Part shown: piece after piece, positions 1 to 18,122 of the stretch | Numbering within the stretch: the first letter of the stretch is position 1 | How the letters are laid out: each line of letters begins with the position of its first letter | Source: a virus | DNA: 18,578 bases | Direction: 5' to 3' (one strand) | UHGV virus genome: UHGV-0126919 | Notes under the pieces: generated by a model | The model's database searches: none | Told to the model about the DNA's origin: nothing | What the model saw: the letters and a program-made list of their open reading frames with translations, nothing else | Made by a program: the position numbers and the translations under genes

Positions 1-1782
1 TATGTTGGAAAGATAATCCCATGCTTTACCAAACATAGATATAATCCATCCATTGAGGTCAAAGTTTAAGATAAAGTTTTTTATAGCCTCAAATGATTTA
101 ACTGTATATTCCTTAACAGAAGGCCAAACTCTGACAGCATAATCTCTGATCTTATCCCAATTCTGATAGAGCAATATTCCTGCGGCAACCAGCGCAGATA
201 TAGCCATCTGAATCCACCCGAAGGGTGTTAGCTTTGTCGCTACAGATAAAGCCAGCATAGCTACCCTACACGCTATAACCACACTTTTCATGGTTAGAAA
301 CGCACCTGCCGCCATCACTATCTGAGACACAAAATTGGGGTTGTTAGCTACAAATTCACTAATTTTTGTAATCAGCGGAACCAAAACACTAAGCGCGGCA
401 TTCAAAGCAGGTTGCAAGGCCTGACCAAAACTTAATGATGCATTGCTAGCCTGAATACGTAATTGTTTCAATCGCTCCGCATTATCTTTCGTTATGTTGG
501 CAAAATCGCGGTCAATAACAGCACTTCCAGCTCCAAGAGATGTTGCTTTGATTCTCTGGTATTCCTTCCAGTTTTGAATCATCGGACGAACAAAGTTCTG
601 AACCTGCATATCGCCAAATAGTTCACCAAGTAACTTCTGATCTCCGTTCTTAGTCATTTTCATGACAGAATGCATTGCAGCTTCGAATGGATTCTTCCCT
701 TTTTTCTGCGCTGTTGTAACAATTTTATATAAATCTACACCGAAATTTTTCTTTGCTTTTTTTAGTGTTTCAGGGGAAAGTATTTTTGCCAAAAAGTTGT
801 TCATATTATTAGCAGCCTCATCCGAAGTTGCAGCCCCCTTGCGAGCTATCTGCAAAGCTGCACCCATCGTCGCGGCTGCTTCTTTACCTCCCATTTTTAA
901 TGCCTGGAACTGAGCACCAAGCACAGGAAGATTTTTGGCCATATCTTTAAATTCAAAGTTCCACTCTTTCCCTGCCTGAACCAGAATCCCCATTGCAGAC
1001 TTCATTTGAGATGGATCAATCTTCAATGAGTCACTTAATGTAAATGATGCTTTCGAGACATCGAGGATATCAGAGCCAGTAGCTGTAGCTGTTCGCCCAA
1101 TAGTTAGTAGATTCGCCTGAGCCTCTTTATAATCCTGCCCAGCAGCGACGAGAAAACCCTGAGCGGCCTGAATATCAGATGCAAACTGGTTGGTAGCCGT
1201 TCCGGTAACAAGCATCGCCTGCCCCATCGCCTGAACTTCTTCCGGCTTCATATCTGCCGTAAGACCAATCATTTTGTTTTCACGATTGAAATTTGCTGCA
1301 TTGTTAGCAGCAGCAAATGCACCAGCCGCTACAGCACCAGTTTGTAATCCTGACCTTACAAGTTGACTCTTTGCCTCACCAAGATGCTCTCGCTTCAATT
1401 CACGCTGCCTTTCCAACGCGCGGTTTAACTCCTCCTGAGCACGTTTTACTGCAAGAACATTTTTCCGTGCTTCAGCCAACGCATTTTTATAGCTGTTAAT
1501 TTTATCAATACGTTGTTTTTCTAATGCCCGGTTAAGTTCCTCCTGCTGTTTTTTCACTTGCTGAACATTTGCTCTGGCTAAAGCCAAAGCCGTTCTGTAG
1601 CGGTTAACCTGCTCAACGCTACGGGCCTGAGCCTCACGATTACGATCAATGCTGGCTTTAAGCTCTTTCTCTCTTGAGGCCAAAGCTCTGGCAGATGTAT
1701 CAGCTCCCTGATAGGCAGACTTTAAAGCGGCCAGTTCTTCACGCTGAGAACGTAGTGATGCTCGTAATGTGTTTTTGCCTTC
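1..1782 (-). CDS. tail tape measure protein, main body (partial; continues past window start)
   Basis: Minus-strand frame appears open from 1782 to the window edge by manual translation. Product is coiled-coil rich (…QARSVEQVNRYRTALALARANVQQVKKQQEELNRALEKQRIDK…) then hydrophobic (…FVSQIVMAAGAFLTMKSVV…), typical of tape measure proteins. Lies just downstream of the tail chaperone genes. No start codon with RBS at its 5' end; it is -1 relative to the N-terminal segment at 1722..2066. Confidence 0.75.
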
Positions 1783-2066
1783 TCAAAGTCACGAAGCATC
1801 GCTCTGGTTGGATTGGCCGTGTTTTTTATTTGCTTCTGTAACTCTTCAACGCGAGCGGCAGCTTTATGATATTCGAGGGCAGTCTGTCCAACCTTTACTT
1901 TTACAGATTGTAGCTTTTGAATTTCCCCATGTTCTTTCGTTAATCCAGCAAGCTCGGCATTTAATTTAGCAACAGCCTGATTAGCTGTAGTAAAACTTTT
2001 GGGGAGAGAGGCGGCAACTTTGCCGCCAATTTCAAAAGCCAGCTTAAAGTTCTTATTGCTGGCCAT
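1722..2066 (-). CDS. tape measure protein, N-terminal segment (114 aa), out of frame with main body
   Basis: Track ORF with ATG at 2066, 5 nt downstream of the chaperone extension stop. Coiled-coil N-terminus (MASNKNFKLAFEIGGKVAASLPKSF…). Ends at TAA 1722-1724 while the -1 frame stays open. Both frames are open only across 1725-1782, which contains an A5 tract (minus strand, 1772-1776). Confidence 0.6.
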   Translation of the reverse strand: MASNKNFKLAFEIGGKVAASLPKSFTTANQAVAKLNAELAGLTKEHGEIQKLQSVKVKVGQTALEYHKAAARVEELQKQIKNTANPTRAMLRDFEKAKTHYEHHYVLSVKNWPL

Positions 2067-4513: not shown

Positions 4514-4803
4514 TATTTAATCTCCATGATAGAAGAAGAAACTCTAGAGTACATTACATACTCGACACTGGTTTTATCAGAAAGTCTTTTTTCTGCATCT
4601 GAAAAATCACTGGTTGCCACAAACAAACACTTTGCACCAGGAATATGTGATATTAATTTTTCACACTCTGGAGATAAGCCATTCTTAAATAGTTTATGCT
4701 TCAAAATTGAGAGTTGAGGGATTGTTGGCCCTATATATACAAATGTTTGAGCAACATCTTCCTTCTTTTCTATATCTTCTTTACTACTTTTCTTATTAGC
4801 CAT
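4513..4803 (-). CDS. hypothetical lysine-rich protein (96 aa), AT-rich gene
   Basis: Track ORF; its TAA overlaps the sheath ATG (TAATG), implying translational coupling. About 33% G+C by manual count, well below flanking structural genes. No family recognised. Confidence 0.45.
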   Translation of the reverse strand: MANKKSSKEDIEKKEDVAQTFVYIGPTIPQLSILKHKLFKNGLSPECEKLISHIPGAKCLFVATSDFSDAEKRLSDKTSVEYVMYSRVSSSIMEIK

Positions 4804-5289
4804 TTAGATAAACTCCTGAGACTGAATATTCTGAGGCTTTAATACTAGCCACGTTCCAGTTGCTTCCGTTATCCAATATGGATATGGTTGATCATCAAAC
4901 ATTCGCCATCTGATATCACCCTGAAAGAGAAATTTCTCTTCAAGTAAAGGCTTCTCCTGAAAATGAAACATCATCCTTTCAAGAAGAGCCATTACCCATT
5001 CATATCCAGTATGGTCCTCACAAAAACCACCTAGAAGAAACTTAACCTTAACTTCATCCGTTTCAGGCTGCATTCCTCCTTCCGTGGGCCTGATAATCAC
5101 ATGAGGAAATTCTGGCGGTTTATCTGGAGATGGTTGTGATTTAGGAGGCAAGTACCCTTTAAATATTGTTGGAACAAACAATTTAATATCGCTGTCTGTT
5201 TCATCATAAGGAGGCCCCTGCACTAATAAATCATGGAAAACCTCATGTTCCAACCGATTTTTTATTGCATCTATCAAAAGATTAATCAA
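4804..5289 (-). CDS. putative neck / tail-completion or terminator-like protein (161 aa)
   Basis: Sits between the FII-like gene and the sheath; ATGA overlap with the FII-like gene. Weak by-eye resemblance to tail-terminator (lambda U-type) proteins only. Confidence 0.4.
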   Translation of the reverse strand: MINLLIDAIKNRLEHEVFHDLLVQGPPYDETDSDIKLFVPTIFKGYLPPKSQPSPDKPPEFPHVIIRPTEGGMQPETDEVKVKFLLGGFCEDHTGYEWVMALLERMMFHFQEKPLLEEKFLFQGDIRWRMFDDQPYPYWITEATGTWLVLKPQNIQSQEFI

Positions 5290-5630
5290 ATCGGCATTCC
5301 TCTGTTAGTATTAACAGTGAGAGTTATTTCCAATACACCAACATTATCTGATACTTCATCAACAATATAATTTTTACCGTTGATTTTCATTGACTGGTCT
5401 TTGACAGGGAGAACAGGAAAATCTTTTCTTGAAACAAATAATATTATTTGCCCCTGATTTATTCCCTCTGCAAACTCAGCATATGAGCGTTTATTCCGCT
5501 CATGAATAAGGTCTGTATCAATAACGGCAAGGATATCCTTGCCGTCTATGTTATATGTATCGGCAAACTCTTTTTCATTGAGGAATATTGCAGAAATATC
5601 TTGCGCTATAACCTCTTTGAAGGAGTTCAT
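5286..5630 (-). CDS. head-tail joining protein (lambda FII-like)
   Basis: 114 aa. C-terminal half (…ILFVSRKDFPVLPVKDQSMKINGKNYIVDEVSDNVGVLEITL…) parallels lambda gpFII (…SLFVRTDEVRQLRRGDTLTIGEENFWVDRVSPDDGGSCHLWL…) by eye. Lies downstream of the capsid gene. Confidence 0.6.
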   Translation of the reverse strand: MNSFKEVIAQDISAIFLNEKEFADTYNIDGKDILAVIDTDLIHERNKRSYAEFAEGINQGQIILFVSRKDFPVLPVKDQSMKINGKNYIVDEVSDNVGVLEITLTVNTNRGMPI

Positions 5631-6022
5631 TACTTCTTATTACCTTTTTTTTGCGTTGATTTTTTCGCATTACTGGTATCAGAAGTAGCTACAGATTCAG
5701 ATGAATCATCAGCAACCATTTCCTCATTGCCGCCATCATCCTCAAACTCAACCTCGAATACACAGCTACCCGCCTCCGTTCGCGTAATCAACCCCGCGTC
5801 CACAGCATCATTAACAGCAGATGCGTATCCATGCTCAAAAGCTAACTTAGCAGCATCATAGCCCCCAGCCGATGCCAAATCACCATCCTCTTCGGTGGCA
5901 ATAGCATGTCCTGACGCAATCAGTTCGGCAATTCTGGAGTTATCCATTAGCCCATTAAGCAAACGGCCCGCTTTTAGCGAGCCGTGGCTTATCGTATCAA
6001 TGTTTTTAATCAGTCTGGCCAT
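5630..6022 (-). CDS. hypothetical head-module protein (130 aa, acidic, Lys-rich C-terminal tail)
   Basis: Track ORF directly downstream of the major capsid gene, at the position of lambda FI-type accessory proteins; no convincing sequence match. One-nucleotide stop/start overlap with the FII-like gene. Confidence 0.45.
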   Translation of the reverse strand: MARLIKNIDTISHGSLKAGRLLNGLMDNSRIAELIASGHAIATEEDGDLASAGGYDAAKLAFEHGYASAVNDAVDAGLITRTEAGSCVFEVEFEDDGGNEEMVADDSSESVATSDTSNAKKSTQKKGNKK

Positions 6023-7066
6023 TTAAACCACCTTAGCCACCAGATAGGCATCAGCCACACCAGGATTAGGCAGTGGAGATGACTTCATGGCAACATAACG
6101 GCCAGCCGGCTTACGAGTTACCCAGGTGTCTGGAACTCGTGGTGACTCAACAATCGTTAGAGTCTTTTCGGCGTCATCTACAAGCTCTACAGCACCATAC
6201 AGCATCGTTCCTCGACCAGGAGAGCCAAAGAGGATCTTATCTTCCGGTACTAATGGTTCAGGTTTTCCTGTTTTATCATTGCGAATAAGTTCGTCGTAAC
6301 CATAAAAATCGACACCTTCAAGATTGCCATAATGAGTTACGCCTTCTTCTAACTCTTTAGGCTCAATATACCCAAGCTCTTTTCGGCGATTATCAAGATA
6401 TTTAGTTACTGCTTCATTTTTAACGAAGGCATCAACAACTTTTGCGCCCATTACGGCAACACGAGGTGTAAAACCTGAAGTTAGTGATACCCGACGTTTC
6501 CAGTTGCGAACATTGACTAACGGATCTGATTTTGCTGCACTCCATAAATCATCACCTGTCAGTTCAAGATATGGTTTATCTCCTTCCTCTTCAGGCCAAA
6601 AATAAACTGTGTCATCCACTCCTTCACCAACAATATCAACCTGCCCCGTAAACAAGACTTGTGCACACATCCATTCTTCACGGCGGTTAACCATTTCATC
6701 AAGCTCAAGCAAATCTTTACCTAATTGCTCGGCGGCTCGTTCTGCTGGCGATTTTGCGTTGTAAATATTCTCACCCGGAAGCCTGTTTAAAAGCAGCTCG
6801 GCTGTTGTTACCAAATCAGGTGCAACAAGTGGTGGCTCCAGAGTTCTCGTTACAAAGCCGCGTCGCTCAACGGTTTTTGAGCCAAAACCTTTACCAACAA
6901 ACGGAGCCATAGTACGGCCACCGCGAACAAAATCCAGATCAACTTTCTTTGTATTAAAGGTCTGAACACCAGGAAAAAAGGTACGAAGAAGAAAACGACG
7001 AGCCTTGAAATTCTGAATAACAGGCTCAAGCATCGTACGTCGTTCAAAAATATCAATATTCGGCAT
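6023..7066 (-). CDS. major capsid protein (lambda gpE-like)
   Basis: 347 aa (lambda E is 341 aa). C-terminal region (…SPRVPDTWVTRKPAGRYVAMKSSPLP…) resembles lambda gpE (…ARYPKNWVTTGDPAREFTMIQSAPLM…). Follows protease and decoration-like genes. Confidence 0.85.
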   Translation of the reverse strand: MPNIDIFERRTMLEPVIQNFKARRFLLRTFFPGVQTFNTKKVDLDFVRGGRTMAPFVGKGFGSKTVERRGFVTRTLEPPLVAPDLVTTAELLLNRLPGENIYNAKSPAERAAEQLGKDLLELDEMVNRREEWMCAQVLFTGQVDIVGEGVDDTVYFWPEEEGDKPYLELTGDDLWSAAKSDPLVNVRNWKRRVSLTSGFTPRVAVMGAKVVDAFVKNEAVTKYLDNRRKELGYIEPKELEEGVTHYGNLEGVDFYGYDELIRNDKTGKPEPLVPEDKILFGSPGRGTMLYGAVELVDDAEKTLTIVESPRVPDTWVTRKPAGRYVAMKSSPLPNPGVADAYLVAKVV

Positions 7067-7086
7067 AAAAATACGACCTCTTTATA

Positions 7087-7470
7087 TTATGCAGATGGAT
7101 TTTGTTGTGCGGTATTAAGGAATATTCCAACCTTCCGGCAAGCCAGATATACATCGGCAACTTTTGCTGATTCAGGAAGGATAACCGCATGTGCATTGAA
7201 CATTCCGGTCAGCCATGCTGTTCCGACTTGCGCTGAATCAGTCGCATCAATATTGTGTTGAGCGATACAATACGGTTCTTTTGCCTCCCCTTCACCAGAG
7301 AGATTTATTGGCGCCACAGTGACAACATTTGTTGTCTGATCAATACTGACAAAAGCAAGTAACTCACCCCGTTTTACTTTACCGCTGGCAAGTTTAATAC
7401 TTGTTGGAATTGCTGGCATACCACCAGAAATAATCAGATTATCTGGTTCAAATGAAAAAGACTCTCGCAT
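7087..7470 (-). CDS. head decoration protein (lambda gpD-like), tentative
   Basis: 127-aa ORF between protease/scaffold and capsid genes, the position of lambda D; only weak by-eye similarity. Confidence 0.5.
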   Translation of the reverse strand: MRESFSFEPDNLIISGGMPAIPTSIKLASGKVKRGELLAFVSIDQTTNVVTVAPINLSGEGEAKEPYCIAQHNIDATDSAQVGTAWLTGMFNAHAVILPESAKVADVYLACRKVGIFLNTAQQNPSA

Positions 7471-7479
7471 AAACTCACC

Positions 7480-8568
7480 TTAATTTTTATCGCGGTTTTT
7501 AAATACTGACCCAATAACATTTTTTACTGCTTCAGCCTGTTTGTTGCCGTTGTTTTCTGGTTGATTAACATCAACTGAATCATTCACCTCACTTGCGTCT
7601 TCTTGCCGTTGATTAAGAAAGTTTTTGTTACGCGCTCGCTCTGCATTCATAATTTCCAAAGCAAGTTCAGCCGCAGAAACTCCTGTTTTGAATTTTGCAT
7701 TCTTAACCAGGTCGTCATGACCAGGAATCACGCTATTCTCGATTGTTTCAATGCGCTCGCGTTCTGATTTAACGCCCTCGTCTTTACCAGCATTAAAAAC
7801 CTGATTGTATAATTCTGGATATTTATTTTTTAATTCATCAAGAGTCACAATATCGTCCTCATTTTGTTCATTTGATTCAGTAGATAACTCATTTTTATTT
7901 TGCGGCAACTTTGCGAGTGAATCAGGTAATTTTGAAAACCTTGATGCTTCAAAAGTTATTCCATTAAGCGAAAGCATCCCTTCCTTTATAGAAGCGGATA
8001 AGCGTATTGGTTTTTCAACTTCGTCAGCAAATCCAAGCTCTACAGCCTCTTCTGCATTTAGCCATGTTTCCTGATCCATTAGTTCAATTAATTTATCCTC
8101 AGAAAGCCCTGTTTTCTCCTTATATGCAGATAAAATACTATTGCGTATCTTATCCATCATCTCAGCAATATCACGCAATTCATCCGCATCGCCAGCAGCA
8201 AATGTCCACGGATTATGGATCATCATCATAGCATTAGATGGGATAATAGTTTTATCACCCGCCATTGCAATAATAGTTGCAGCCGATGCAGCAATCCCGT
8301 CGATATAAACCGTAATATTCGCCTTATGACGCTTTAATGATGAAAGAATAGCTTGAGCAGTAAAAACAGAACCACCATAACTATTAATTTTTACGTTGAT
8401 AGTATTTGATGAAATATCCTTTAATTTATTAACTATGTCAGAAGAAGAAACCTCATCAAATTCACCAATATACCCGTAAATTAAAAGTTCAGCCGGAGAG
8501 TCATCTTCACCCGTGCTATTTTTTATTTCCCACCAATTAGGCATCATCAGTCTCCATATTTTGTTCAT
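7480..8568 (-). CDS. prohead protease / scaffold (ClpP/S49 family, lambda gpC-like)
   Basis: 362 aa with serine-protease signatures (…NSYGGSVFTAQAI…, …IDGIAASAATIIAMAGDK…, …MMIHNP…) and a charged, helical C-terminal half typical of a fused scaffold. Overlaps the portal gene end as lambda C overlaps B. Confidence 0.85.
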   Translation of the reverse strand: MNKIWRLMMPNWWEIKNSTGEDDSPAELLIYGYIGEFDEVSSSDIVNKLKDISSNTINVKINSYGGSVFTAQAILSSLKRHKANITVYIDGIAASAATIIAMAGDKTIIPSNAMMMIHNPWTFAAGDADELRDIAEMMDKIRNSILSAYKEKTGLSEDKLIELMDQETWLNAEEAVELGFADEVEKPIRLSASIKEGMLSLNGITFEASRFSKLPDSLAKLPQNKNELSTESNEQNEDDIVTLDELKNKYPELYNQVFNAGKDEGVKSERERIETIENSVIPGHDDLVKNAKFKTGVSAAELALEIMNAERARNKNFLNQRQEDASEVNDSVDVNQPENNGNKQAEAVKNVIGSVFKNRDKN

Positions 8569-10111
8569 TTACCTCAGAAACAGGAGGTGTAATAAGCCCC
8601 AACTCACGGCGAGCATTCTCTTCTCTGCCACAGATTTGTGCGGTTTCTTCCCAGTTAAGACCTGACATTTCAGCCGCTTCTTTTTCACGGGTAGAGAATG
8701 TTTCCTCAACACGCAGTTTTGCAGCTTTGACTTCTTTAAGGGGATCTAATTGGCCTTGTGATGGGCCATACCATTGAGCGCCACTCCATGCAGCGCGATA
8801 TTCAGGCCCATAAAAAAAACCAGGGGCAATAACACGACCTTTAGCAACGGCTTCGGCCAACCATTCCTCATAGATCGGTGGGCAAAATGACTGAACCATC
8901 CAGTCACGTCGCATACGGAACATTTTCCAGGCTTCAAGTAATGCGGCCCTGCTTGCGCTATAACTTGCTGTAAAATGCTTTACCAAGAGTTCGTAAGGGA
9001 GTTCTAAAGCAGCCCCAATTTGACGGCATATGGCGACAACAAAACCATCAAATGCCGTATTTGGTCGCCCGGGATTTGCTGTATCTATCGACTCACCTTC
9101 ACCCAAACTTACTATGGAGCCATTCCCCATTTCTTGGGTGTTATCATCATGGTTATCGATCTGCTCGTACTGAGGGATACCCGATTCACCGACTGGCCCA
9201 TCAGGAGCGTCTGTTTTAATAAAGACAGTAAACATCCCTGACACAACCGCAGCAACCAATTCAGCATCGGTGTATCGTCCTAACTGCTTCAATGCTTCAA
9301 TTACAGGAGCAAGGACAGGAACGCCACGGCGTTGCCCAGGCCTTTCAAAATCCTGCATGACATGCAGAATATTTCTTCTTCCTGTTTTACTCCCATATGC
9401 GGGAATACGTTCCCACTTGCGGGTTACAAAACCAGAAGTCCCGGCTGGGTGATGTTTTGCAACCCAGTACGCCACAGGCTCGCTAAATTCACCAACCTCT
9501 ACGCCACCGTAAAGATTTGGTATAAAACGATCCTCTGGATTGCAAACACGATCACCTTCAATTAAATAGACGCACAAATCATATATAACACCCTTACGCT
9601 TAATAACTGGTAGCGCAGCAAATATATCGCCAGATGTTAACGCAGATATTTGGACCAATGATTGCAATTGTCCAAAAGTACACATTCTTGATGCATCACA
9701 ATTTGGAGAATCAGCCCATAATCTAAACTCACGCTCAACATGCTTTTCCCATGCTCGCGCTTCTTCCTGCGTCATCCCCAAGAAATCGGCATCAATGTTC
9801 GCATTTAGTTTTAAACCGGAACCAACAACGTTTGTCCTGATAGTTTTTATTGCGCCAACAGATAGCGGGTTTCCCATGAAGAGATCACGAGAACGCTCAC
9901 GCAATTTATCTATATTTTTAACAATATCATCATCAGGAGAACCAGCTTTACTAAACCAACCCCTTAATGATTTTTTATGAGTGCTTGCACCATGACGTGA
10001 ATATCCAAGGTTATTAATACCTTCAAGTGCTTCTAACCGTTTTCTTGCCAAAGCTCGATTTAATGCCCTCTGAGGTGAAAACGGCGCAATAACTCGATCA
10101 AGAATATTCAT
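8537..10111 (-). CDS. portal protein (lambda gpB-like)
   Basis: 524 aa (lambda B is 533 aa). Sits between the W-like and protease genes; N-terminal region parallels lambda B by eye. ATGA overlap with the W-like gene. Confidence 0.85.
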   Translation of the reverse strand: MNILDRVIAPFSPQRALNRALARKRLEALEGINNLGYSRHGASTHKKSLRGWFSKAGSPDDDIVKNIDKLRERSRDLFMGNPLSVGAIKTIRTNVVGSGLKLNANIDADFLGMTQEEARAWEKHVEREFRLWADSPNCDASRMCTFGQLQSLVQISALTSGDIFAALPVIKRKGVIYDLCVYLIEGDRVCNPEDRFIPNLYGGVEVGEFSEPVAYWVAKHHPAGTSGFVTRKWERIPAYGSKTGRRNILHVMQDFERPGQRRGVPVLAPVIEALKQLGRYTDAELVAAVVSGMFTVFIKTDAPDGPVGESGIPQYEQIDNHDDNTQEMGNGSIVSLGEGESIDTANPGRPNTAFDGFVVAICRQIGAALELPYELLVKHFTASYSASRAALLEAWKMFRMRRDWMVQSFCPPIYEEWLAEAVAKGRVIAPGFFYGPEYRAAWSGAQWYGPSQGQLDPLKEVKAAKLRVEETFSTREKEAAEMSGLNWEETAQICGREENARRELGLITPPVSEVNEQNMETDDA

Positions 10112-10347
10112 AAATCTCTTATCACCACTCGTTTAATTCGTGGGCCTCGGCGTACACCTGCTGATAATCTTTCTACTTCATTACGCCAGTAATCCATCTC
10201 TTTTCTGACTTCTGATAAATCCGCACGAGTTAACTGCCGCGTACCAAATTTATATGACTGACCGCCAATAGCAATAGCGCGATATGCTTCCCGCCAGACA
10301 GATAACATCTCTCTGGCTTCAGTCAGAGAAAATGCTTCATTGTTCAT
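10108..10347 (-). CDS. head-tail joining protein (lambda gpW-like)
   Basis: 79 aa between large terminase and portal; C-terminal …RRGPRIKRVV… resembles lambda W …RRRGPAGFYV. Confidence 0.65.
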   Translation of the reverse strand: MNNEAFSLTEAREMLSVWREAYRAIAIGGQSYKFGTRQLTRADLSEVRKEMDYWRNEVERLSAGVRRGPRIKRVVIRDL

Positions 10348-10358
10348 TTATATTTCCT

Positions 10359-11780
10359 CTATATGGTTACGCCTTTACTTATAACTCTACGGCGTCTTCT
10401 ACGTATACCTGACGAGTTCTGCACATACACATTACCTCGCATTTCCTGTTCGGCAAGCCAGTTAAAATTAGGGTTCAGAATTTCCATCGCGGCAGTTGCA
10501 TAGTTACGGCAATCAAGAGGCTCGTTACGCTCGTAGACTTTCACCCACTTTTCTTTTGTCTGCCCATTTTTATATTCAAATATTTTTTTCTCTGATAATA
10601 ATCCTTTAAAGTATTCGGTATCATATCCTCTGTCAGAATCTAATGGGAAATGCATATAACCAGGACCAGGATCATGTAGTTTAATTCTTGCCATGATGGT
10701 CCCTTTACCATCATCAACCCCCAAATTAAACAACATAGCACCCACACGGTTATTATTACTTGGCTTTCCTATAAATGGTAAACCTACCCCACCACGCCCC
10801 CTGATAGAGTATATTCGCCTTGATTCTCTCGGCTTAGTAAAGCGATATACCTCTGTCGTAAAATGCCCACCAGAGTCAATACAAACGGAAGAAATCTGTA
10901 ATTTTCGACCGTCACGGAATGACCAGCTACGGAGTAAGTATTCATCAAGTTGTTTCCAGACAACATCTTGTGCGGGATCACCTGGGAATATTTTATATTC
11001 TATCCCCCATGACTCCTTACCTTTTCCCCAACCGACCAATTCACAAACTAAATACGTGTCCTGTACGTCAACACCAGCACTTAACAATAAAACATCATCT
11101 GGTAAAAACTCTTCAAACCTTATTCTGCGTTGCAACAAGTATTCAGGATCGATATCGTCTTTAGCATCCTCTTTCCATGGCTCACCCAGCTTAAGGTTAA
11201 TAAACTCCATTAATCCATTTTTATCGCGGTTTCTGGTTGCTTCCGTAAATTCTTCAACCAGCTCTGACAATGCAACCCACGGGGAGTAAAGACTGTTAAT
11301 ATGAAAACCAACAATACCTTTAACTCCAGTATGTTCAGCTATCCATACCCCCTTCGCCAACCAATCAACGTCTGGTTTACCAGATCCGCGCATAATCCCG
11401 CCGCACTCACAGCACTCATATCTGGCCGTTTCCGGTAACGCCTCACCTGAATCGCTCTTATCCCATCTGACTTGCGACCATTTCATCACCTGCATGGTGC
11501 CACAACATGGGCAAGGAACATGGTAGTAACGCTGATCGGAGAGCTTAAACCACTTGTGGATTTTGCTTGTTTCCTCCAAAACAGGAGTAGAAACAAAAAC
11601 TTTCTTACGATTATGAAAGTTGGTAGTACGCTGAATACCTAGTTTTAGTGGGTCGCCCTCCTGCGTCACACCGTAACGATCAATCTCATCAGCTAACAGT
11701 ATTCGAATTGGCCTGGATGCAAGACCTGCTGGGGAATTAGCACCAACAAGTGCTATATATCCACCAGCGTAATGCTTCAT
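10359..11780 (-). CDS. terminase large subunit (lambda gpA-like), C-terminal segment (473 aa)
   Basis: MKHYAGGYIALVGANSPAG… aligns with lambda gpA from about residue 137 (TMKRFTNGRGFWCLGG…) and continues through the …FHINSLYSPW… region (lambda …FHIWTAYSPF…). Its ATG overlaps the TGA of the N-terminal segment (ATGA). Confidence 0.85.
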   Translation of the reverse strand: MKHYAGGYIALVGANSPAGLASRPIRILLADEIDRYGVTQEGDPLKLGIQRTTNFHNRKKVFVSTPVLEETSKIHKWFKLSDQRYYHVPCPCCGTMQVMKWSQVRWDKSDSGEALPETARYECCECGGIMRGSGKPDVDWLAKGVWIAEHTGVKGIVGFHINSLYSPWVALSELVEEFTEATRNRDKNGLMEFINLKLGEPWKEDAKDDIDPEYLLQRRIRFEEFLPDDVLLLSAGVDVQDTYLVCELVGWGKGKESWGIEYKIFPGDPAQDVVWKQLDEYLLRSWSFRDGRKLQISSVCIDSGGHFTTEVYRFTKPRESRRIYSIRGRGGVGLPFIGKPSNNNRVGAMLFNLGVDDGKGTIMARIKLHDPGPGYMHFPLDSDRGYDTEYFKGLLSEKKIFEYKNGQTKEKWVKVYERNEPLDCRNYATAAMEILNPNFNWLAEQEMRGNVYVQNSSGIRRRRRRVISKGVTI

Positions 11781-12178
11781 ACGTATAGTCCTTCATGCAG
11801 CTTGTGTTTCAAACCAGGGGAATATTTGAACGTCGGATCAATACGCTCTTTTGAAAAAGCCTCAGCCGCCTCTACCGTTGGATAAATCATCAACTGAGGA
11901 GATGGCTCCTGATCTGCAAAGTAACCCATAACATTTAGCTGTAATTCGGATTTACCAATTTGCGAGCTACATTGCATCACTACTGTTTCTGTATCAGCGT
12001 CACCAATAACATCCATTGGTTCACGCAAATATGGCACTCGGCTTGTACGCCACGGCCCTGGCTCTGGAGACGTTCCCGGCGCTACATGACGATACTTATC
12101 AGCCCATTCGGAAACAGTTAGCCGTGATTTAGGGCGAAGCGCACGGAAAAAAGCGGTGCTCCATACTGTTTCGCCCAT
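11777..12178 (-). CDS. terminase large subunit (lambda gpA-like), N-terminal segment (133 aa)
   Basis: …TVSEWADKYRHVAPGTSPEPGPWRTSRVPYLREPMDVIG…VVMQCSSQIGKSELQLNVMGYFA… parallels the lambda gpA N-terminus (…TAVEWADANYYLP…VNVVKSARVGYSKMLLGVYAYFI…) including the P-loop-like segment. It ends where the homology continues in the -1 frame, so one gene is split by a frame break. Confidence 0.8.
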   Translation of the reverse strand: MGETVWSTAFFRALRPKSRLTVSEWADKYRHVAPGTSPEPGPWRTSRVPYLREPMDVIGDADTETVVMQCSSQIGKSELQLNVMGYFADQEPSPQLMIYPTVEAAEAFSKERIDPTFKYSPGLKHKLHEGLYV

Positions 12179-12183: not shown

Positions 12184-12735
12184 TTATTCTTCCTGCTTAA
12201 TAAATCGGGATTCCTGGAGCGCCTGAAGCGCAAAATTAATCTCGTCTTCAATAATGCGCTCGATCTCCCTGGCTGTTTTGCCTTCACAACGGGGAGCTGC
12301 TCTTGGAGCAATACTAAATAAGCGGCTACGCAATTCATTAGCTGCCAGAAATGCATCATCCCTGACCGCATCTTTAGCGATGAGAGAGCCTTCCTTTTCT
12401 TCAAATTCAAGGCGTTTCAGCTTTGCCTGATAAATTTTTTCTGCGGTCTTAGCCTTGTTGAATTGCACCGCAACACCGGAAGTACCACCAGCTAATCCGG
12501 CATCATCAGCGGGTAACTCTGGTTGTTCCGAAGATATCCCATGCCCTCTTTTTCCATTTTCAGCAGATACCTCACGACCAACCTGTCGGCTCGCTTCATA
12601 AGCCGCACTGGCTTTATCAAAATCCAGCTTGCCGCTTTTCAGCACTGGAATGCGACCGGAACGACAGAGCTTCGTAACCATTGCCGGAGAAATACCTTTC
12701 CGGCGGGCAAACTCTGACTTACTGACGATGGCCAT
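12184..12735 (-). CDS. terminase small subunit (Nu1-like, HTH)
   Basis: N-terminus …SKSEFARRKGISPAMVTKLCRSGRIPVLKSGKLDFDKASAAYEA… resembles lambda Nu1 (…NKKQLADIFGASIRTIQNWQEQGMPVLRGGGKGNEVLYDSAAVIKWY…). Directly upstream of the large terminase. Likely start is ATG at 12735 overlapping the ParB-like TAA (TAATG); the track's TTG at 12744 is an alternative. Confidence 0.7.
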   Translation of the reverse strand: MAIVSKSEFARRKGISPAMVTKLCRSGRIPVLKSGKLDFDKASAAYEASRQVGREVSAENGKRGHGISSEQPELPADDAGLAGGTSGVAVQFNKAKTAEKIYQAKLKRLEFEEKEGSLIAKDAVRDDAFLAANELRSRLFSIAPRAAPRCEGKTAREIERIIEDEINFALQALQESRFIKQEE

Positions 12736-13325
12736 TACTTGCAACCATTAGCAAGATACTGAACAAATCCCTCATGCGTTTCATGCGCGTCGTGGTACTG
12801 ACGATAAACATCCAGCAACAATGCAATTTCCATATCCGTCGCGGGAATACGTTCTTTATCAATAGCCAGGTACTTAATTTGAACAACAGGGGAAGAATTA
12901 TCGTCTTCTTCCTGCGGCTGTTCATCGCTTAACATTTCGTCAAGCTCTGCATCATTAAACCCAAGCAGATCAATATCAAAATCATCATCCATTAACTCTT
13001 TGACTTCTTCGGCCAGAAGCTGCATATCCCAGCCAGCATTTAAGGCCAGCTTGTTATCTGCAATCCTGTAAGCCTTCTTCTGTTTTTCAGAAAGGTTACT
13101 CAACCGAATCGCCGGAACTTTATCCATTTCCAGAATTTCGGCTGCTGCAAGCCGCCCATGCCCCGCAATCAGTTCATTCTTTTCATCGATCAGCACAGGA
13201 TTAGTGAAACCGAACTCACGGATACTGTTCACCAACTGTTCAACTTGCTCATCTGAATGAGTCCGTGAATTTTTGGCATATCTGAGCAACTTACCGACTG
13301 GTAAATATTCGATTTTTAGAGCCAT
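12735..13325 (-). CDS. ParB-like N-terminal (ParB/Srx) domain protein, paralog A
   Basis: 196 aa; …NSRTHSDEQVEQLVNSIREFGFTNPVLIDEKNELIAGHGRLAAA…QKKAYRIADNKLALNAGWD… has the ParB-N style G-H-x-R box. Roughly half its residues match paralog B (15991..16614) by eye. Translationally coupled to the small terminase. Confidence 0.7.
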   Translation of the reverse strand: MALKIEYLPVGKLLRYAKNSRTHSDEQVEQLVNSIREFGFTNPVLIDEKNELIAGHGRLAAAEILEMDKVPAIRLSNLSEKQKKAYRIADNKLALNAGWDMQLLAEEVKELMDDDFDIDLLGFNDAELDEMLSDEQPQEEDDNSSPVVQIKYLAIDKERIPATDMEIALLLDVYRQYHDAHETHEGFVQYLANGCK

Positions 13326-13881
13326 TTTTTAACCGCCATAACACAACAGGTTAAAGAAAACTGTTTAACTTATTGATACTAAAAGAGAAAAATGACGATC
13401 TTTTTACTCATAAAAAATCACACAAACCAGCATAATTATCTGATTTTATTAAGTTTTTATAAGTAAAAAGGATCTTGCGATGGTGTTTTGGTTAAAAGAT
13501 TGGATGTATTTGCATGATTTATAACGATTTTTATCAGAACAACATCACATTGGTTAAAGATCTGCGCGTATCTTGATGATCTAAAAGAAAATTTTCCACT
13601 TTCTTCTTACCAGCACAAATACAGAAAAAATCACGTTTTCCCGATATTTTTCAATGAGATGAGTAAATTTCTTTTACCGCAACTTTTAACCTAACTTTTT
13701 TCACGTTTAGCTAGCCGAATATCGGGGTTCGAATGACCCGCATCCAACGCTTTTGGCCAGAAGGACCCAATTCTGCCGGACGATGAAACGATGCTCGTGC
13801 TCCCCCACAGACAGCCAGCGAGCGACGCTACAGAACACAGTGAATACACTCTGCATAACAACACCATCAACCACACGATGA
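13326..13881. other. 556-bp noncoding region (AT-rich left part, GC-rich right part) upstream of the packaging module; candidate cos/pac or regulatory region
   Basis: No convincing ORF. Direct repeat TTGGTTAAA(A)GAT at 13488-13500 and 13550-13561. Four GATC sites at 13397, 13471, 13559, 13578. GC-rich segment 13700-13860 with small hairpins. Confidence 0.5.
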
Positions 13882-14617: not shown

Positions 14618-15991
14618 CTACTTAATCAACGGCCGGAAAGCCGCCAGCACATCATCAGATCGTCCGATTGTTGAACCACCAGGCAACGGCAACTCAAACT
14701 CAAAACGAACAGCTTTCTCCAGACTCGCCCAACTAAGGGAATCATCGTTAATAACGTGCAAATACCAGCTCTTACAGTTGAATATTGACCGCTTAATCCT
14801 GAAACCATGTACACGACACAACTGCTTCACTTCATCATCAGAGTGAAACTTCTGGTAAAACCAGTGCCCCTTCCGGTACAACGCGGTAAAACCGTTATGA
14901 TCAATAAAATAAAGCCGGCTTTTGGAACTCGCAGCTTGTGTTTGCTTCAGGACTGTTTCCAGCTCTCCACGGCTACGGCCAGAAAAGAATATTGACCCAC
15001 CAGCTTTACACAAGCCTTTCAGAACCGTCAGAACGGACCATTCAGCCTCGACACTATCGACCGAGTTCAAAACGCTATCGCAAATCACGTAGTCGTAACG
15101 CCCTCGCGTTTTTAAGTCGTCCACCAGCGTATCAATCATCCGGTTTGTTGCGGTCCTATCCAGAGTGTTTCCAGCGCCCTTACGGCGGAAAAGCTCGAGA
15201 TCATGCAGGTTATATCCCTTTGCCCTGAGCATTCGCGCGTAGTCTCCCTGCCCCGAACCAAAATCAATTCCTCTTGGCGTCTTGGCAATGATCGGGAGGA
15301 TCAACGACTCATACAGGTTTGATTTCAGGCTGCCACCATTACGCAACCGCATAAGCTGCGCATACGTCTGGATGTATGTTGTTTTCTCCAGATGAGAATA
15401 CTCAAATACACCATAAGTTTTATTCAGATAACTTTGGTATTTTTCCTTCTCAACATCAGGGATCACAAACACCGTTAGCGGTGTGCGCGTCATTTTCGCT
15501 GCTAATGCATACTGAGCACAGTGAATAACCTCACCAGACTGAGTAGCAACACAACCACCCCACGGACCATACTTGATAACCAGTTCCGCTATGTTCTTTC
15601 GAACATATGCCATTTTCGCGCGCATATTGCCTGAGATCTGGCTTGCCGATACCTGAACAAAACCATGCTTATCTTCCAGACCGGACACCCTGCAACGCTC
15701 ATCTCCGCTATCAAAATCCGTTCCGTTATGCAGTTGGTTAAACCGTACTTCGTCGTATACCGTCGTTTCACAGGGCAACACATACACCGCAGCACGCGTT
15801 ATTCCCAACTTACGTAGCGCCTTCGTCCTTTGGTGTCCCGCCACCAGCAAATCGCCGCGCACTATCAATGGCTTCACAAGCCCCAGCTCCCTGACGCTTT
15901 CCGCCAGCCTCGCAAGATCATCCTCACCGATAAAACGCGGGTTATATTCCGCGCCGCGTAGGTGCGTTATGTCGTAATTGAGGTGAAGCAT
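14618..15991 (-). CDS. ParB-like N-terminal domain fused to a class I SAM-dependent methyltransferase domain
   Basis: N-terminus …YNPRFIGEDDLARLAESVRELGLVKPLIVRGDLLVAGHQRTKAL… is ParB-N-like. C-terminal half has Rossmann methyltransferase motifs in class I order: motif I GIDFGSGQGDY, acidic post-I (…YNLHDLELF), motif II YDYVICDSVL, motif III LCKAGGSIFFS. No (D/N/S)PP(Y/F/W) motif seen by eye. Likely start is ATG at 15991 (TGATG overlap with the ParB-B stop, SD GGAGG 7 nt upstream); the track uses GTG at 15997. Confidence 0.75.
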   Translation of the reverse strand: MLHLNYDITHLRGAEYNPRFIGEDDLARLAESVRELGLVKPLIVRGDLLVAGHQRTKALRKLGITRAAVYVLPCETTVYDEVRFNQLHNGTDFDSGDERCRVSGLEDKHGFVQVSASQISGNMRAKMAYVRKNIAELVIKYGPWGGCVATQSGEVIHCAQYALAAKMTRTPLTVFVIPDVEKEKYQSYLNKTYGVFEYSHLEKTTYIQTYAQLMRLRNGGSLKSNLYESLILPIIAKTPRGIDFGSGQGDYARMLRAKGYNLHDLELFRRKGAGNTLDRTATNRMIDTLVDDLKTRGRYDYVICDSVLNSVDSVEAEWSVLTVLKGLCKAGGSIFFSGRSRGELETVLKQTQAASSKSRLYFIDHNGFTALYRKGHWFYQKFHSDDEVKQLCRVHGFRIKRSIFNCKSWYLHVINDDSLSWASLEKAVRFEFELPLPGGSTIGRSDDVLAAFRPLIK

Positions 15992-16614
15992 CAGCACACC
16001 TCCCCAGCCAGCAATGCGGATACAAATCCGATATAGCTGCCATTATCATCAACATAACGAGACACCGCGCAGTCAAAACGATCCGCTTCCTCATCCGTTG
16101 CCGGGATTTTATGACCTCCAAATGACAGGTACTGAACTTTTACGCCTGATTTGGCCTCATCCTTCTCAAATGGGATATCCATACCCTCTGTGTCATCGTA
16201 GACCGCCGCACTCAATAAGTTATCCAGTTCGCGCTGAGTAAAACCAATTGAGTCCAGAGAAAAATCATCGGCCGCAAGATCTGCAAGCTCCGCGCTTAAC
16301 AACTCTTCATCCCAACCAGCATTCAGCGGAATACGGTTGTCGGCCAGACGATATGCCTTCTTCTGATTCTCCGTTAGCCCAGCCAGAACAATGCAGGGAA
16401 CATCATCCATCCCCAACTGAGTGGCCGCAGCAATTCGACCATGACCAGCAATTACAACGTTGTTCTCGTCTATCAGGATCGGATTAGTCCATCCGTACTC
16501 CTGTATGCTGGCAACAATCTGATCTACCTGCTCCACGGAGTGTGTGCGAGCGTTCTTTTCATAACCAATCAACACAGAAAGTGGTAAAGAAACCACATTA
16601 AGTTGTTTTGTCAT
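15991..16614 (-). CDS. ParB-like N-terminal (ParB/Srx) domain protein, paralog B
   Basis: 207 aa; …NARTHSVEQVDQIVASIQEYGWTNPILIDENNVVIAGHGRIAAA…QKKAYRLADNRIPLNAGWD… is clearly paralogous to 12735..13325. Translationally coupled to the methyltransferase fusion. Confidence 0.7.
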   Translation of the reverse strand: MTKQLNVVSLPLSVLIGYEKNARTHSVEQVDQIVASIQEYGWTNPILIDENNVVIAGHGRIAAATQLGMDDVPCIVLAGLTENQKKAYRLADNRIPLNAGWDEELLSAELADLAADDFSLDSIGFTQRELDNLLSAAVYDDTEGMDIPFEKDEAKSGVKVQYLSFGGHKIPATDEEADRFDCAVSRYVDDNGSYIGFVSALLAGEVC

Positions 16615-16848: not shown

Positions 16849-17259
16849 TTACTCTGGTATCAAACAGATGTGGCCGTTATTTACCTCAATACGGGAATAT
16901 TCCGGCTTACCATCCACGATTCCGGTAATGACAAGTTCGCCATCAGGCGACCATTCTTCTTTGTCGTCTTCAAGTACCGCGCCTTCTGGCAAATCAATAC
17001 AGGCAAAAACAGGGCAGCCAGGATGACGTTTATCCTCCATCGCAATCAGCATCGACTCACCGAACCACTCTGTGGTAGCACGGCCATCAGCCGCCTGATA
17101 GTGAATCAGATACTGGTTTTCGCCATTTGCATACTGAGCACGGGCTTTAACTTCTCCCCATTCGTCACTGATACGCATTGTTACCAGTTGGGATAATTCA
17201 AACTTAAACGGAACAGCATCTGCACCAATGGCAATCGGTTTATCTTCTTTCTTTTCCAT
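16849..17259 (-). CDS. hypothetical protein (136 aa; track ORF extends to 17328)
   Basis: Internal ATG at 17259 has a good SD (AGGTGA, 5-nt spacer) and lies just downstream of the 17271-17300 terminator; the track's upstream extension would read through that hairpin. Acidic soluble protein, no family recognised. Confidence 0.5.
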   Translation of the reverse strand: MEKKEDKPIAIGADAVPFKFELSQLVTMRISDEWGEVKARAQYANGENQYLIHYQAADGRATTEWFGESMLIAMEDKRHPGCPVFACIDLPEGAVLEDDKEEWSPDGELVITGIVDGKPEYSRIEVNNGHICLIPE

Positions 17260-17270
17260 AACATCACCTG

Positions 17271-17300
17271 AAAATAAAAAGCCCCGCGACACCGCGAGGC
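17271..17300 (-). terminator. rho-independent terminator (minus strand)
   Basis: Minus-strand RNA: GCCUCGCG-GUGU-CGCGGGGC (8-bp GC-rich stem with one G-U pair, 4-nt loop) followed directly by UUUUUAUUUU. Lies 9 nt downstream of the 50-aa gene stop. Confidence 0.65.
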
Positions 17301-17308
17301 TGTAAGAG

Positions 17309-17461
17309 TTACTTTCGATAGAAATCAAGGCGCAATTGCTCCCGCTTACGCCGAAAAGCTCTCTGCGCCACTAAGATGCGCCACAGGACACCAGCGATAA
17401 CCACCAGCGAGATACAAAAACACACGGCCACAACCATCAGAAAAATGCCAACACCATTCAT
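17309..17461 (-). CDS. small single-pass membrane protein (50 aa), not in the ORF track
   Basis: ATG at 17461 overlaps the upstream TGA (ATGA). Translation MNGVGIFLMVVAVCFCISLVVIAGVLWRILVAQRAFRRKREQLRLDFYRK: hydrophobic N-terminal helix and strongly basic C-terminus. Followed by the 17271-17300 terminator. Below the track's 60-aa cut-off. Confidence 0.5.
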   Translation of the reverse strand: MNGVGIFLMVVAVCFCISLVVIAGVLWRILVAQRAFRRKREQLRLDFYRK

Positions 17462-17664
17462 GAAACTATCCATTCTTCAATGAATATCTCCAGTAATATC
17501 AAGAGATACGCCGTTCCCAGCGCGGTTCCTACCGATATAGCTAAGACAAACCTCAAAGATAACGAGGTGTCCTTCGCTTTTCTCCAGACGTAAGCGCCAG
17601 CCAGAAATACCAACAAATCTCTTATTGGAAGCGGAAACCAGAACAAATCACTCGGCAAGTCCAC
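17458..17664 (-). CDS. small two-transmembrane protein (69 aa from GTG; holin-like topology)
   Basis: The track's TTG start at 17715 lacks an RBS and overlaps the upstream gene by 49 nt. GTG at 17664 has SD AAGGA with a 7-nt spacer and sits right after the upstream stop (17667-17669). Two hydrophobic segments (…LFWFPLPIRDLLVFLAGAYVW… and …FVLAISVGTALGTAYLLILLEIFI…). Confidence 0.45.
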   Translation of the reverse strand: MDLPSDLFWFPLPIRDLLVFLAGAYVWRKAKDTSLSLRFVLAISVGTALGTAYLLILLEIFIEEWIVS

Positions 17665-17666
17665 GG

Positions 17667-18122
17667 TTATATCCTTCCATTCATTTTTATCGGGTGACCA
17701 GATAGCCTTAGGCAATTGAGCTGTAAAGCTCCTGTATCAACTAAATGATCAACTAACATGATTAGAGATTCATATTCAGCCAGATAGCTAACCTGACGCA
17801 TTCGACCGCCGTTGTTCTCCAGAATGTCAGCCACCTTTGCAGCCAACTCGCTTAGACAGAAGAACTTATTCCCATATATCGTTTTATACTCGCGCTTCTG
17901 GCATTCTTCGGCTTGCGGCTGGTTATCGAGAGCTATCAGCGACCGATGGCTATCAATGAAGTCCACAATCTCATTCAGGCATTCTTTAGCTGCCTCATCG
18001 TGACTTTTTCCGTATGCTTCACGGAGGACTTTCATCCTCATCATTGCTCCGTCACATATAGTCGAAAGCGCGTAAAGCACATCACTAACCGCCATTTCTT
18101 TTTTGGTGCTTGTCGAAGGCAT
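17667..18122 (-). CDS. hypothetical protein (151 aa), first gene after the upstream terminator
   Basis: ATG at 18122 with SD AAGGAG about 9 nt upstream; the 18148-18173 terminator lies just upstream of that RBS. Soluble, no family recognised. Confidence 0.5.
   Translation of the reverse strand: MPSTSTKKEMAVSDVLYALSTICDGAMMRMKVLREAYGKSHDEAAKECLNEIVDFIDSHRSLIALDNQPQAEECQKREYKTIYGNKFFCLSELAAKVADILENNGGRMRQVSYLAEYESLIMLVDHLVDTGALQLNCLRLSGHPIKMNGRI

Follow-up and report, generated by a model that had tools for sequence, protein, structure and literature searches.

The two terminase reading frames and the gap between them

The window analysed here is a whole metagenome contig of 18,578 nt (ERZ1311068 NODE_874_length_18578_cov_2.89176), in which the large terminase gene (terL) is divided between two open reading frames (ORFs) on the minus strand. 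Is the division a property of the phage or of the contig? The evidence favours the contig: with a probability of roughly 85%, the frame break is a read-processing or assembly artefact of this contig and does not belong to the phage itself.

The N-terminal ORF (12178..11777, minus strand) encodes 133 residues ending ...KHKLHEGLYV and a stop, that is, native residues 1–130 followed by LYV, and is 100% identical to intact relatives as far as the gap described below. It carries the Walker A motif C70-S-S-Q-I-G-K76-S77 (11948..11971, minus), which aligns to the P-loop region of lambda gpA; K76, S77 and E78 are invariant among 53 homologs. The C-terminal ORF (11780..10359, minus) encodes 473 residues beginning MKHYAGGY (native M146–618) and carries Walker B, I-L-L-A-D176-E177 in intact numbering (11685..11702, minus; D176 and E177 invariant among the same 53 homologs), the remainder of the ATPase domain and the nuclease domain. 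It lies in the −1 frame relative to the first ORF, and its ATG, native Met146, overlaps the TGA of the first in an ATGA (11780..11777, minus). The first-pass annotation described these two ORFs, their overlap and their frame relation correctly; it was also right that the 14-nt stretch open in both frames, AAGGACTATACGTA, holds neither a homopolymer nor an X XXY YYZ heptamer.

Judged from sequence, terL of the window matches both domains of gpA-type large terminases far beyond chance. The N-terminal ORF matches positions 1–92 of the GpA_ATPase profile (PF05876; E = 4e-28, 99.1 bits) and the C-terminal ORF positions 105–247 of the same profile (E = 1e-41, 143.7 bits), positions 1–290 of GpA_nuclease (PF20454; E = 6e-85, 285.5 bits) and positions 477–972 of PHROG 15, the Pfam matches of both ORFs exceeding the gathering cut-offs. 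The homology is thus strong in each ORF; it is not continuous across them, as had been thought, since Pfam positions 93–104 and PHROG 15 positions 466–476 have no match in the window. No single polypeptide of the window combines Walker A, Walker B and the nuclease domain, as that of every relative does. The packaging-module context is otherwise in place. An intact terS, the small terminase subunit gene (12184..12744, minus; PHROG 57, E = 7e-42), lies directly upstream and is likewise present in relatives; a DUF6148/PHROG 118 adaptor gene and a Phage_portal_2 gene lie downstream. The gene order (ParB-like, terS, terL, DUF6148 head-tail adaptor, portal, ClpP-like protease) is the same in window and relatives.

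The closest intact TerL is WP_001406385.1, from ~48-kb E. coli phage-like plasmids, with 99.6–100% DNA identity over the 1820 nt of the window's gene. Relatives have 37 nt more than the window and one 618-aa ORF, against the window's two ORFs lacking profile positions 93–104. Alignment with phage, plasmid and metagenome relatives places the difference at 11789..11791 (minus) as a clean gap between window positions 11791 and 11789: the absent GGAAAGAGGGGCGCGGTGCAGCCAAAAAGTCCAGCAC is terL nt 390–426, codons 131–142 plus 1 nt. In the sense direction CTGCATGAAG is joined to GACTATACG with a 1-nt (G) ambiguity, the sequences meeting at the junction being CATGAAGG and ACTATACG. Two expectations of the first-pass annotation do not hold here, namely an intact protein of about 606 aa (it has 618) and a single-base change that restores one ORF (none does). 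The similarity to lambda that it drew across the junction (...HEGLYV against ...DNTLT) is fortuitous: in the shifted frame, the codons for T143-I144-R145 happen to be read as LYV. The junction also creates AAGGA (11789..11793, minus) 8 nt 5′ of the ATG, a Shine-Dalgarno-like sequence that appears fortuitous when read from the sequence. Promoter and terminator scans around the junction, and Rfam and tRNA scans over the whole window, gave no match.

Intact relatives and the residues lost

The element is a common 47–49 kb myovirus-like E. coli phage-plasmid whose terL encodes one 618-aa gpA-type terminase. The 37 nt are present in all 59 PLSDB plasmids and all five phage records, each with one 618-aa gpA-type TerL. 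Relatives with a TerL of the WP_001406385.1 type include pEC0585-2 (NZ_CP195051.1), p23AR1217C and the 48-kb plasmid of ATCC 25922; the phage relatives include Escherichia phage vB_EcoM-613R2, a predicted prophage (bioRxiv 10.1101/2022.06.29.498070), and Yersinia phages vB_YpM_39/41/44. No published name for this 48-kb phage-plasmid family was found in the literature. The 32-kb phage HQ103 (PMC11177050) is unrelated to it, and the phage-plasmids of the pSLy3/SSU5 groups (PMC7969092) seem to be different elements.

Among complete E. coli records 72 matched, and all 60 of the matches listed carry the 37 nt; these 60 match in two pieces over 1857 nt, the exceptions being a copy of 1856 nt and another that carries an IS insertion. 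A 70-mer spanning the junction has no match in 5,426 complete E. coli genomes, and in the viral and metagenome contigs searched neither this 70-mer nor a junction 30-mer has one, although the intact junction occurs there 13 times. The 133-aa product of the N-terminal ORF is found on this contig alone among 153 billion gene positions, and the 473-aa truncated product on fifteen other contigs of the public collection as well.

In intact relatives the GpA_ATPase profile is matched from 1 to 247 without interruption, and the codons absent from the window specify a highly conserved loop with Walker A on one side and Walker B on the other. Both fragments lack the 15 residues K131–R145, among which R134, T143, I144 and R145 are invariant and G133, G135, K139 and S140 nearly so. 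That the 37 nt are instead an insertion in the relatives is ruled out, as they restore both Pfam positions 93–104 and the conserved loop. An AlphaFold model of an 89%-identical homolog, which resembles solved large terminases (D6E, Sf6 gp2, T4 gp17, HK97 and P74-26), puts the break in a low-confidence loop (131–141, pLDDT < 50) predicted to sit between helix 102–119 and strand 145–149, outside the core elements. Searched by sequence, the PDB gave no match to the intact protein. Of the 120 best-scoring homologs (55–89% identity), almost all consist of one chain of 610–621 aa. Those that do not are partial calls, together with three proteins of greater length: two have an added homing-endonuclease domain (LAGLIDADG_3), and the third, of 762 aa, lacks that domain. 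Lambda gpA, at about 30% identity in a MAFFT alignment, has the same two-domain architecture (PF05876 + PF20454). The P-loop and DE (Walker B) regions of the two proteins align, and in both a T-x-x-M-K-x-[FY] motif follows the loop. Lambda gpA is a single 641-aa chain, with another sequence in the loop that precedes the MK(R/H)(F/Y) strand.

An adapter-like motif at the gap and at other lesions

At terL nt 387–396 lies AGGGAAAGAG (plus strand CTCTTTCCCT), a purine-rich 10-mer common to the Illumina universal adapter and read-1 primer and the sole 10-mer that terL has in common with Illumina adapters. The gap takes out most of it, leaving an AGG remnant (11790..11792, minus); the chance that the gap would meet an adapter-like 10-mer is estimated at ~1%. 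The motif belongs to a 13-nt polypurine/polypyrimidine stretch, CCCCTCTTTCCCT, that occurs twice in the reference region (L004), in terL and in the tape-measure gene.

The k-mer coverage given in the contig name is 2.89, a low depth, and the contig has other anomalies. Over window positions 1–11790 the further differences from pEC0585-2 are two SNPs and a second private gap. Both SNPs are private and radical missense changes (tape-measure G372W, portal Q411P). The second gap, out of frame in the tape-measure gene (1765..1766, minus), lacks 10 nt (AAATTCGATG) that are present in all 59 plasmids; adapter similarity was looked for at this gap and none was found. Two multi-nucleotide gaps against two SNPs in 11.8 kb are implausible as natural divergence. 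The tape-measure gene has the motif's other copy (962..973, plus); here a C>A change at 963, private against all 59 plasmids, turns CCCTCTTTCCCT into CACTCTTTCCCT and so extends the identity with the Illumina universal adapter to 12 nt. The contig itself starts (1..1) 1 nt past the GAACTCCAGT+T of relatives, GAACTCCAGT being a 10-mer of the TruSeq indexed adapter whose end lies 2 nt before the contig start. Exactly three 10-mers of the 19.4-kb reference region are in common with TruSeq adapters, and all three coincide with anomalies of the contig (its start, the private C>A and the terL gap). When positions were drawn at random, three of five anomalies fell within 2 nt of adapter k-mers in 1–3 of 200,000 trials, a figure to be read with the adapter hypothesis having been framed after the data were seen. 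A second low-coverage contig (L013, coverage 2.04) has a private 17–18-nt complex indel of its own in a variable gene, suggestive of low-coverage noise.

Other metagenome assemblies, from other samples and pipelines and independent of the window, are broken at the same place. One pair of contigs from an unrelated sample (L028/L037) has a run of 26 Ns in terL with exactly the boundaries of the window's gap. At the terL motif there are further runs of 15 Ns (L027/L041 and L033) and 10 Ns (L029), a run of 19 Ns abutting it (L025/L032), a 2-nt deletion (L026/L034) and a 7-nt deletion (L024). The terL lesions in these assemblies all touch or abut the motif, save the 1-nt deletion of L030 and the junction of a 12-kb deletion. 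The contigs were chosen through the 473-aa product, which limits detectable terL lesions to roughly nt 313–435, and the clustering in terL is therefore inflated. The clustering in the tape-measure gene is unaffected by this selection; there the motif copy is broken by 25 Ns in L033 and by a 4-nt insertion in L032, two contigs with few lesions elsewhere. None of the 59 finished plasmids has a lesion at either copy.

The exact processing step behind the gap we infer. Reads over adapter-like stretches may be clipped or lost in processing, or distorted by adapter homology in library PCR, and such loss at the motif would leave a fixed coverage hole. At roughly threefold depth an assembler could fuse the flanks of the hole through a 1-nt overlap, placing no Ns. 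As the gap measures 12 codons plus 1 nt, the frame shifts and the N-terminal ORF therefore halts at a TGA that happens to overlap the native Met146 codon, at which gene callers open the second ORF. The case is like other short-read assembly artefacts in its low coverage, in a lesion on an adapter-identical 10-mer, in that both copies are hit and in that finished genomes are intact; unlike them, the gap (37 nt) exceeds the motif. The right edge of the hole, which is also that of L028, bears only weak resemblance to adapters. A 10-nt adapter match falls below the default thresholds of common trimmers, which likewise counts against an artefact.

Several other origins for the hole were considered and rejected. 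Adapter sequence does not bridge the junction (junction 42-mers score 7–8, background mean 7.15). Repeat-mediated deletion, or an overlap made by a gap closer of the SPAdes type, does not fit flanks with 1 nt in common and no repeat of at least 10 nt; when the 10-mers beside the gap are compared with the ends of the deleted sequence, 3/10 and 4/10 positions agree. No hairpin brackets the gap, the only candidate being a 6-bp inverted repeat, GCTGCA...TGCAGC (terL nt 378–383 and 405–410). A cos site or virion end within terL would imply an implausible 37-nt overhang, and finished plasmids read through; cos is likelier to lie in the roughly 550-nt intergenic region 13326–13881, upstream of the ParB-like gene and terS.

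Other readings of the split

That the lesion is real is unlikely. The window would then carry a private inactivating 37-bp deletion in a lineage decaying to a plain plasmid, with the ORFs as pseudogene remains and the 10-nt tape-measure gap and two missense changes as further decay under relaxed selection. [quoted passage not shown] Independent terL lesions also occur in relatives: an IS1203 insertion in NZ_CP173475.1, a 1856-nt copy annotated as two pieces in the 32-kb plasmid NZ_CP024829.1, and a variant with a deletion of roughly 12 kb that joins the DUF3560 region to terL at nt ~429 with about 6 nt of microhomology (junction in L023/L035/L038/L040; counted in three assemblies, L035, L038 and L040). 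The platform seems not to be indel-prone, because the contig has no private 1-nt indels, and a clean 37-nt deletion is atypical as an Illumina read error; both points count for a real deletion. The IS1203 and 12-kb lesions of other defective phage-plasmids of the family, unlike the window's, have no link to the adapter-like motif. Several assemblies show the 12-kb deletion, whereas the window's gap occurs once, at a site prone to artefacts. Its allele is on no other sequence of the collections searched. Its edges equal those of an N-gap from an unrelated sample, and it meets an adapter-like 10-mer, as the contig start and one private SNP do. The skewed mutation spectrum and the coverage of 2.89 also speak against it. 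The first-pass annotation had offered an inactivating frameshift and a sequence error side by side. Error is the best supported reading, as a 37-nt gap and not a 1-nt slip; an inactivating lesion is much less likely and, were it real, would be a deletion and not a single-base frameshift.

A variant in which CCCCTCTTTCCCT is a fragile or cleavage site in vivo, generating recurrent small deletions that include a real 37-bp allele and resembling an adapter by coincidence, is very doubtful. If true, such fragility would inactivate virion genes and turn the phage-plasmid into a plain plasmid.

The first-pass annotation also proposed a two-polypeptide terminase reinitiating at the ATG. To be functional, both fragments would have to be translated, the second by coupling at the ATGA with AAGGA, and to reassemble across what would be a flexible surface loop of the intact protein. 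This is highly improbable. The stop/start overlap, the Shine-Dalgarno-like AAGGA 8 nt upstream of the ATG and the predicted placement of the break in a low-confidence loop instead of a core element would suit it, and PHROGs has short gpA-like fragment families (phrog_3925, phrog_21311), so that split annotations occur elsewhere. The AAGGA and the ATGA overlap are, however, by-products of the gap, and the split costs the conserved residues of K131–R145, four of them invariant. The same split was sought in the relatives and is present in none: terL is unsplit in all 59 PLSDB plasmids and all five phage records, the junction 70-mer is absent from the 5,426 genomes, and the best 120 homologs are nearly all single chains. 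Least credible of all is programmed −1 ribosomal frameshifting that joins both ORFs into one protein: the second ORF overlaps the first in the −1 frame, as in the lambda G/GT tail assembly chaperone, but AAGGACTATACGTA has no slippery heptamer, the window has no Rfam match, the two-frame arrangement is not conserved (relatives all have one ORF, which all but refutes this reading), the break falls inside an enzyme domain and the fused product would remain without 12 conserved residues. Jointly, a two-piece terminase and a programmed frameshift have only a minute share of the probability.

On the artefact reading, the finding bears on quality control and little on the biology of the phage. A 10–13 nt stretch identical to the Illumina universal adapter seems to be the cause of repeated N-gaps and small indels and, in at least one case, of a silent false join of 37 nt, and such lesions yield 'frameshifted' or 'split' terminase and tape-measure genes in short-read metagenome assemblies. 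When metagenome contigs are searched for pseudogenes, programmed frameshifts or defective prophages, candidate breaks should be compared with adapter-like k-mers and contig coverage. For the biology, the locus most probably encodes the ordinary gpA-type large terminase of an E. coli phage-plasmid that is already well sampled, and the split would not be a designed feature of it.

Two reading frames and a missing segment

The large terminase gene (terL) occupies two ORFs on the minus strand, an N-terminal one of 133 aa (N-ORF, 12178..11777) ending in KHKLHEGLYV* and a C-terminal one of 473 aa (C-ORF, 11780..10359) beginning MKHYAGGY, which lies in the -1 frame relative to the first and overlaps its stop codon in an ATGA (11780..11777). 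Pfam assigns GpA_ATPase profile positions 1-92 to the N-ORF and positions 105-247, with the complete GpA_nuclease domain, to the C-ORF, and the PHROG 15 match has the same hole (positions 466-476 absent). The two-ORF arrangement is genuine, and its match to gpA far exceeds what chance would give. The N-ORF carries Walker A (CSSQIGK76S) and the C-ORF Walker B (ILLAD176E177). The PHROG hits of the two ORFs also include families of short gpA-like fragments [phrog_3925 (~150 aa), phrog_4145, phrog_21311 and phrog_12876]; split or fragmentary gpA-type annotations thus recur in phage records.

Megablast identified near-identical terL (99.6-100%) in five phage records, 72 complete E. coli records and 59 PLSDB plasmids. 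In the complete E. coli records 74 of 75 terL places are on plasmids, mostly of 46-52 kb (31-57 kb among the records listed), and all 59 PLSDB plasmids are predicted to be non-mobilizable. The match falls into two pieces spanning 1857 nt, versus 1820 nt in the window, in all records listed except two: one interrupted by IS1203 (IS3 family; finished plasmid NZ_CP173475.1) and a copy of 1856 nt with a two-piece annotation (NZ_CP024829.1, a truncated 32-kb finished plasmid). These two lesions are independent.

Alignment with the relatives reveals a single clean gap: GGAAAGAGGGGCGCGGTGCAGCCAAAAAGTCCAGCAC, which in relatives stands between ...CTGCATGAAG and GACTATACG..., is absent from the window (placement ambiguous by 1 nt). 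The missing part is nt 390-426 of the intact gene, codons 131-142 plus one base. The N-ORF therefore encodes native residues 1-130 and then LYV* out of frame, the first codon of the C-ORF is that of the intact protein's internal Met146, and K131-R145 are absent from both fragments. In intact WP_001406385.1 (618 aa) GpA_ATPase 1-247 is matched without interruption. The first-pass annotation had described a -1 frame break with gpA homology continuous over the junction, but the cause is the 37-nt gap and no 1-nt frameshift, and about 12 conserved positions are absent (Pfam, PHROG 15); that the stretch with both frames open (AAGGACTATACGTA) lacks a slippery heptamer is borne out.

Residues lost in the gap

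Almost all of the best 120 of 7,819 homologs are single chains of 610-621 aa. In an alignment of 53 TerL homologs (55-90% identity) the lost stretch has the consensus E-G-K-[DE]-G-R-G-x-[SA]-[RK]-K-S-S-T-T-I-R-M-K-H, with R134, T143, I144 and R145 invariant and G133, G135, K139 and S140 nearly so. If the gap is real, the protein is very probably inactive. In the AlphaFold model for a homolog with 89% identity (mean pLDDT 86), which solved large terminases match, residues 131-141 form a low-confidence loop (pLDDT < 50) between helix 102-119 and strand 145-149. Lying between the Walker motifs, the basic loop at residues 130-148 is almost invariant down to 55% identity yet predicted to be disordered, and would be both conserved and flexible in this TerL clade; the corresponding segment of lambda gpA differs in sequence. 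Two homologs of 1015-1024 aa (P0097, P0117) carry an additional LAGLIDADG_3 domain (PF14528) and are probably intein-containing terminases; another oversized homolog (P0106, 762 aa) has the two terminase domains only.

Anomalies and breaks at adapter-like motifs

The sole contig with a record of the 133-aa product is the window itself (ENA ERZ1311068, NODE_874_length_18578_cov_2.89176), whose coverage of 2.89 is a first warning sign. A 70-mer spanning the junction has no match in 5,426 complete E. coli genomes, and the junction 30-mer was not found in viral and metagenome contig collections that hold 13 intact-junction copies. Besides the 37-nt gap, window 1-11790 differs from the near-identical phage-plasmid pEC0585-2 (NZ_CP195051.1) only by one SNP in the tape-measure gene (963, G372W), one in the portal gene (8880, Q411P) and a 10-nt gap at 1765/1766 in the minus-strand tape-measure gene. 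All four differences are private versus the 59 plasmids, and two multi-nucleotide gaps against two SNPs are no natural mutation spectrum. The 10 nt (AAATTCGATG) are present in 59/59 related plasmids; their loss, with a microhomology of only 2 nt, shifts the frame (N-fragment ORF 1722..2066) and cuts the tape-measure protein short after ~100 native residues. No adapter similarity was found at this gap.

Nucleotides 387-396 of terL are AGGGAAAGAG, on the plus strand CTCTTTCCCT, which is part of the Illumina universal adapter/read-1 primer ACACTCTTTCCCTACACGAC and the sole 10-mer that terL has in common with Illumina adapters. The 19.4-kb reference region (L004) holds exactly three TruSeq-like 10-mers, each coinciding with a window anomaly. 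In relatives GAACTCCAGT, from the TruSeq indexed adapter, ends 2 nt before the position at which the contig begins (1 nt after GAACTCCAGT+T); CTCTTTCCCT in the tape-measure gene has the private C>A at 963 directly 5' of it, extending the identity with the Illumina universal adapter to 12 nt (CACTCTTTCCCT; 962-973, plus strand); and the 37-nt gap interrupts CTCTTTCCCT in terL. When the five anomalies were placed at random, three of the five fell within 2 nt of adapter-like k-mers in only 1-3 of 200,000 trials; the adapter hypothesis was post hoc.

The private T>G at 8880 (portal, minus strand) falls within an adapter-like stretch, AGATCGGT[T>G]GG...CTGAACCATCCAGTCAC, with AGATCGG, CTGAAC and TCCAGTCAC at near-TruSeq-adapter spacing, and the sequence past the right end (18578) in relatives (CACGGAACTCAAC) resembles CACGTCTGAACTCCAG only weakly. 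The remaining 'private' SNPs concentrate in a variable segment (17240-17940) where relatives have replacements and indels, some with a partial tail-fibre-assembly pseudogene. A further contig of the element with very low coverage (L013; ERZ1106915 NODE-3185, cov 2.04) carries a complex indel of 17-18 nt, private to it, in a hypothetical gene (2324-2332) and stops a few bases beyond the hotspot, at terL nt 440.

Fifteen further contigs (Logan, ENA, JGI, NCBI) have the exact 473-aa product among their gene calls, and in those read terL is broken within the same ~40-nt patch. Ns replace nt 390-425 in L028/L037 (N26, with exactly the window's boundaries), nt 390-396 in L027/L041 and L033 (N15), nt 395-406 in L029 (N10) and nt 369-386, abutting the motif, in L025/L032 (N19); L026/L034 lack nt 395-396 and L024 lacks nt 395-401. 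Selection through the 473-aa product limits detectable lesions to roughly nt 313-435, and within this range every lesion listed touches or adjoins nt 387-396; of the contigs read, the pattern does not hold for L030 (1-nt deletion, nt 362) or for the junction (~nt 429) of a ~12-kb deletion. The tape-measure motif gives an independent check free of this bias: among contigs reaching it, L033 has N25 in place of L004 1463-1476 and L032 a 4-nt insertion at L004 1476, with few lesions elsewhere in the contigs compared. Both motif copies are intact in finished plasmids.

Its presence in three assemblies suggests that the ~12-kb deletion variant (L035 9505-10004, L038 and L040 1182-1681; ERZ27239214, ERR3503300, ERR3503301) is a truly defective derivative of the element. 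The deletion would cover the lysis genes, MT-A70, ParB-like genes, terS and the first ~428 nt of terL, with the join through ~6 nt of microhomology (TATACG). In the window three ParB_N-domain genes (12735-13325, 14618-15997 and 15991-16614, minus strand) lie upstream of terS, one being a 457-459-aa ParB_N-methyltransferase fusion; in relatives an MT-A70 methyltransferase lies just past the position of the contig end.

Origin of the split

The simplest account of the 37-nt gap, to which we give a probability of about 85%, is a technical artefact. Reads over adapter-like stretches would be clipped, discarded or distorted, leaving a fixed hole in coverage where scaffolders may place Ns or, at ~3x, join the flanks directly, in the window through a 1-nt overlap. 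The default thresholds of common trimmers exceed a 10-nt adapter match. At the gap there is no near-repeat of at least 10 nt that would explain a gap-closer join, the junction sequence when checked was not adapter-like, and the right boundary, common to L028, is left unaccounted for by the adapter account.

A true deletion, private to a phage-plasmid undergoing decay, is biologically reasonable, given the IS1203 insertion in terL and the deletion that, in three assemblies of the same family, fuses the DUF3560 region to terL nt ~429, and the decay of phage-plasmids into plasmids has been described (PMC12977533); it is nevertheless unlikely, since it leaves unexplained both the coincidence with adapter-like motifs and the boundaries common to an N-gap. 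A functional two-piece terminase, for which the predicted position of the split in a loop is the sole favourable point, is very improbable, and a programmed frameshift still more so: the arrangement is not conserved, invariant residues are lost and a slippery site is absent.

The window gene belongs to the lambda gpA-type large terminase family, with both Pfam domains and the packaging-module context, and its continuity as one chain is broken in this contig only. The locus offers no new kind of system, and the split is therefore best filed as not biologically real; in practice, recurrent pseudo-frameshifts in metagenome contigs can arise from adapter-like k-mers.
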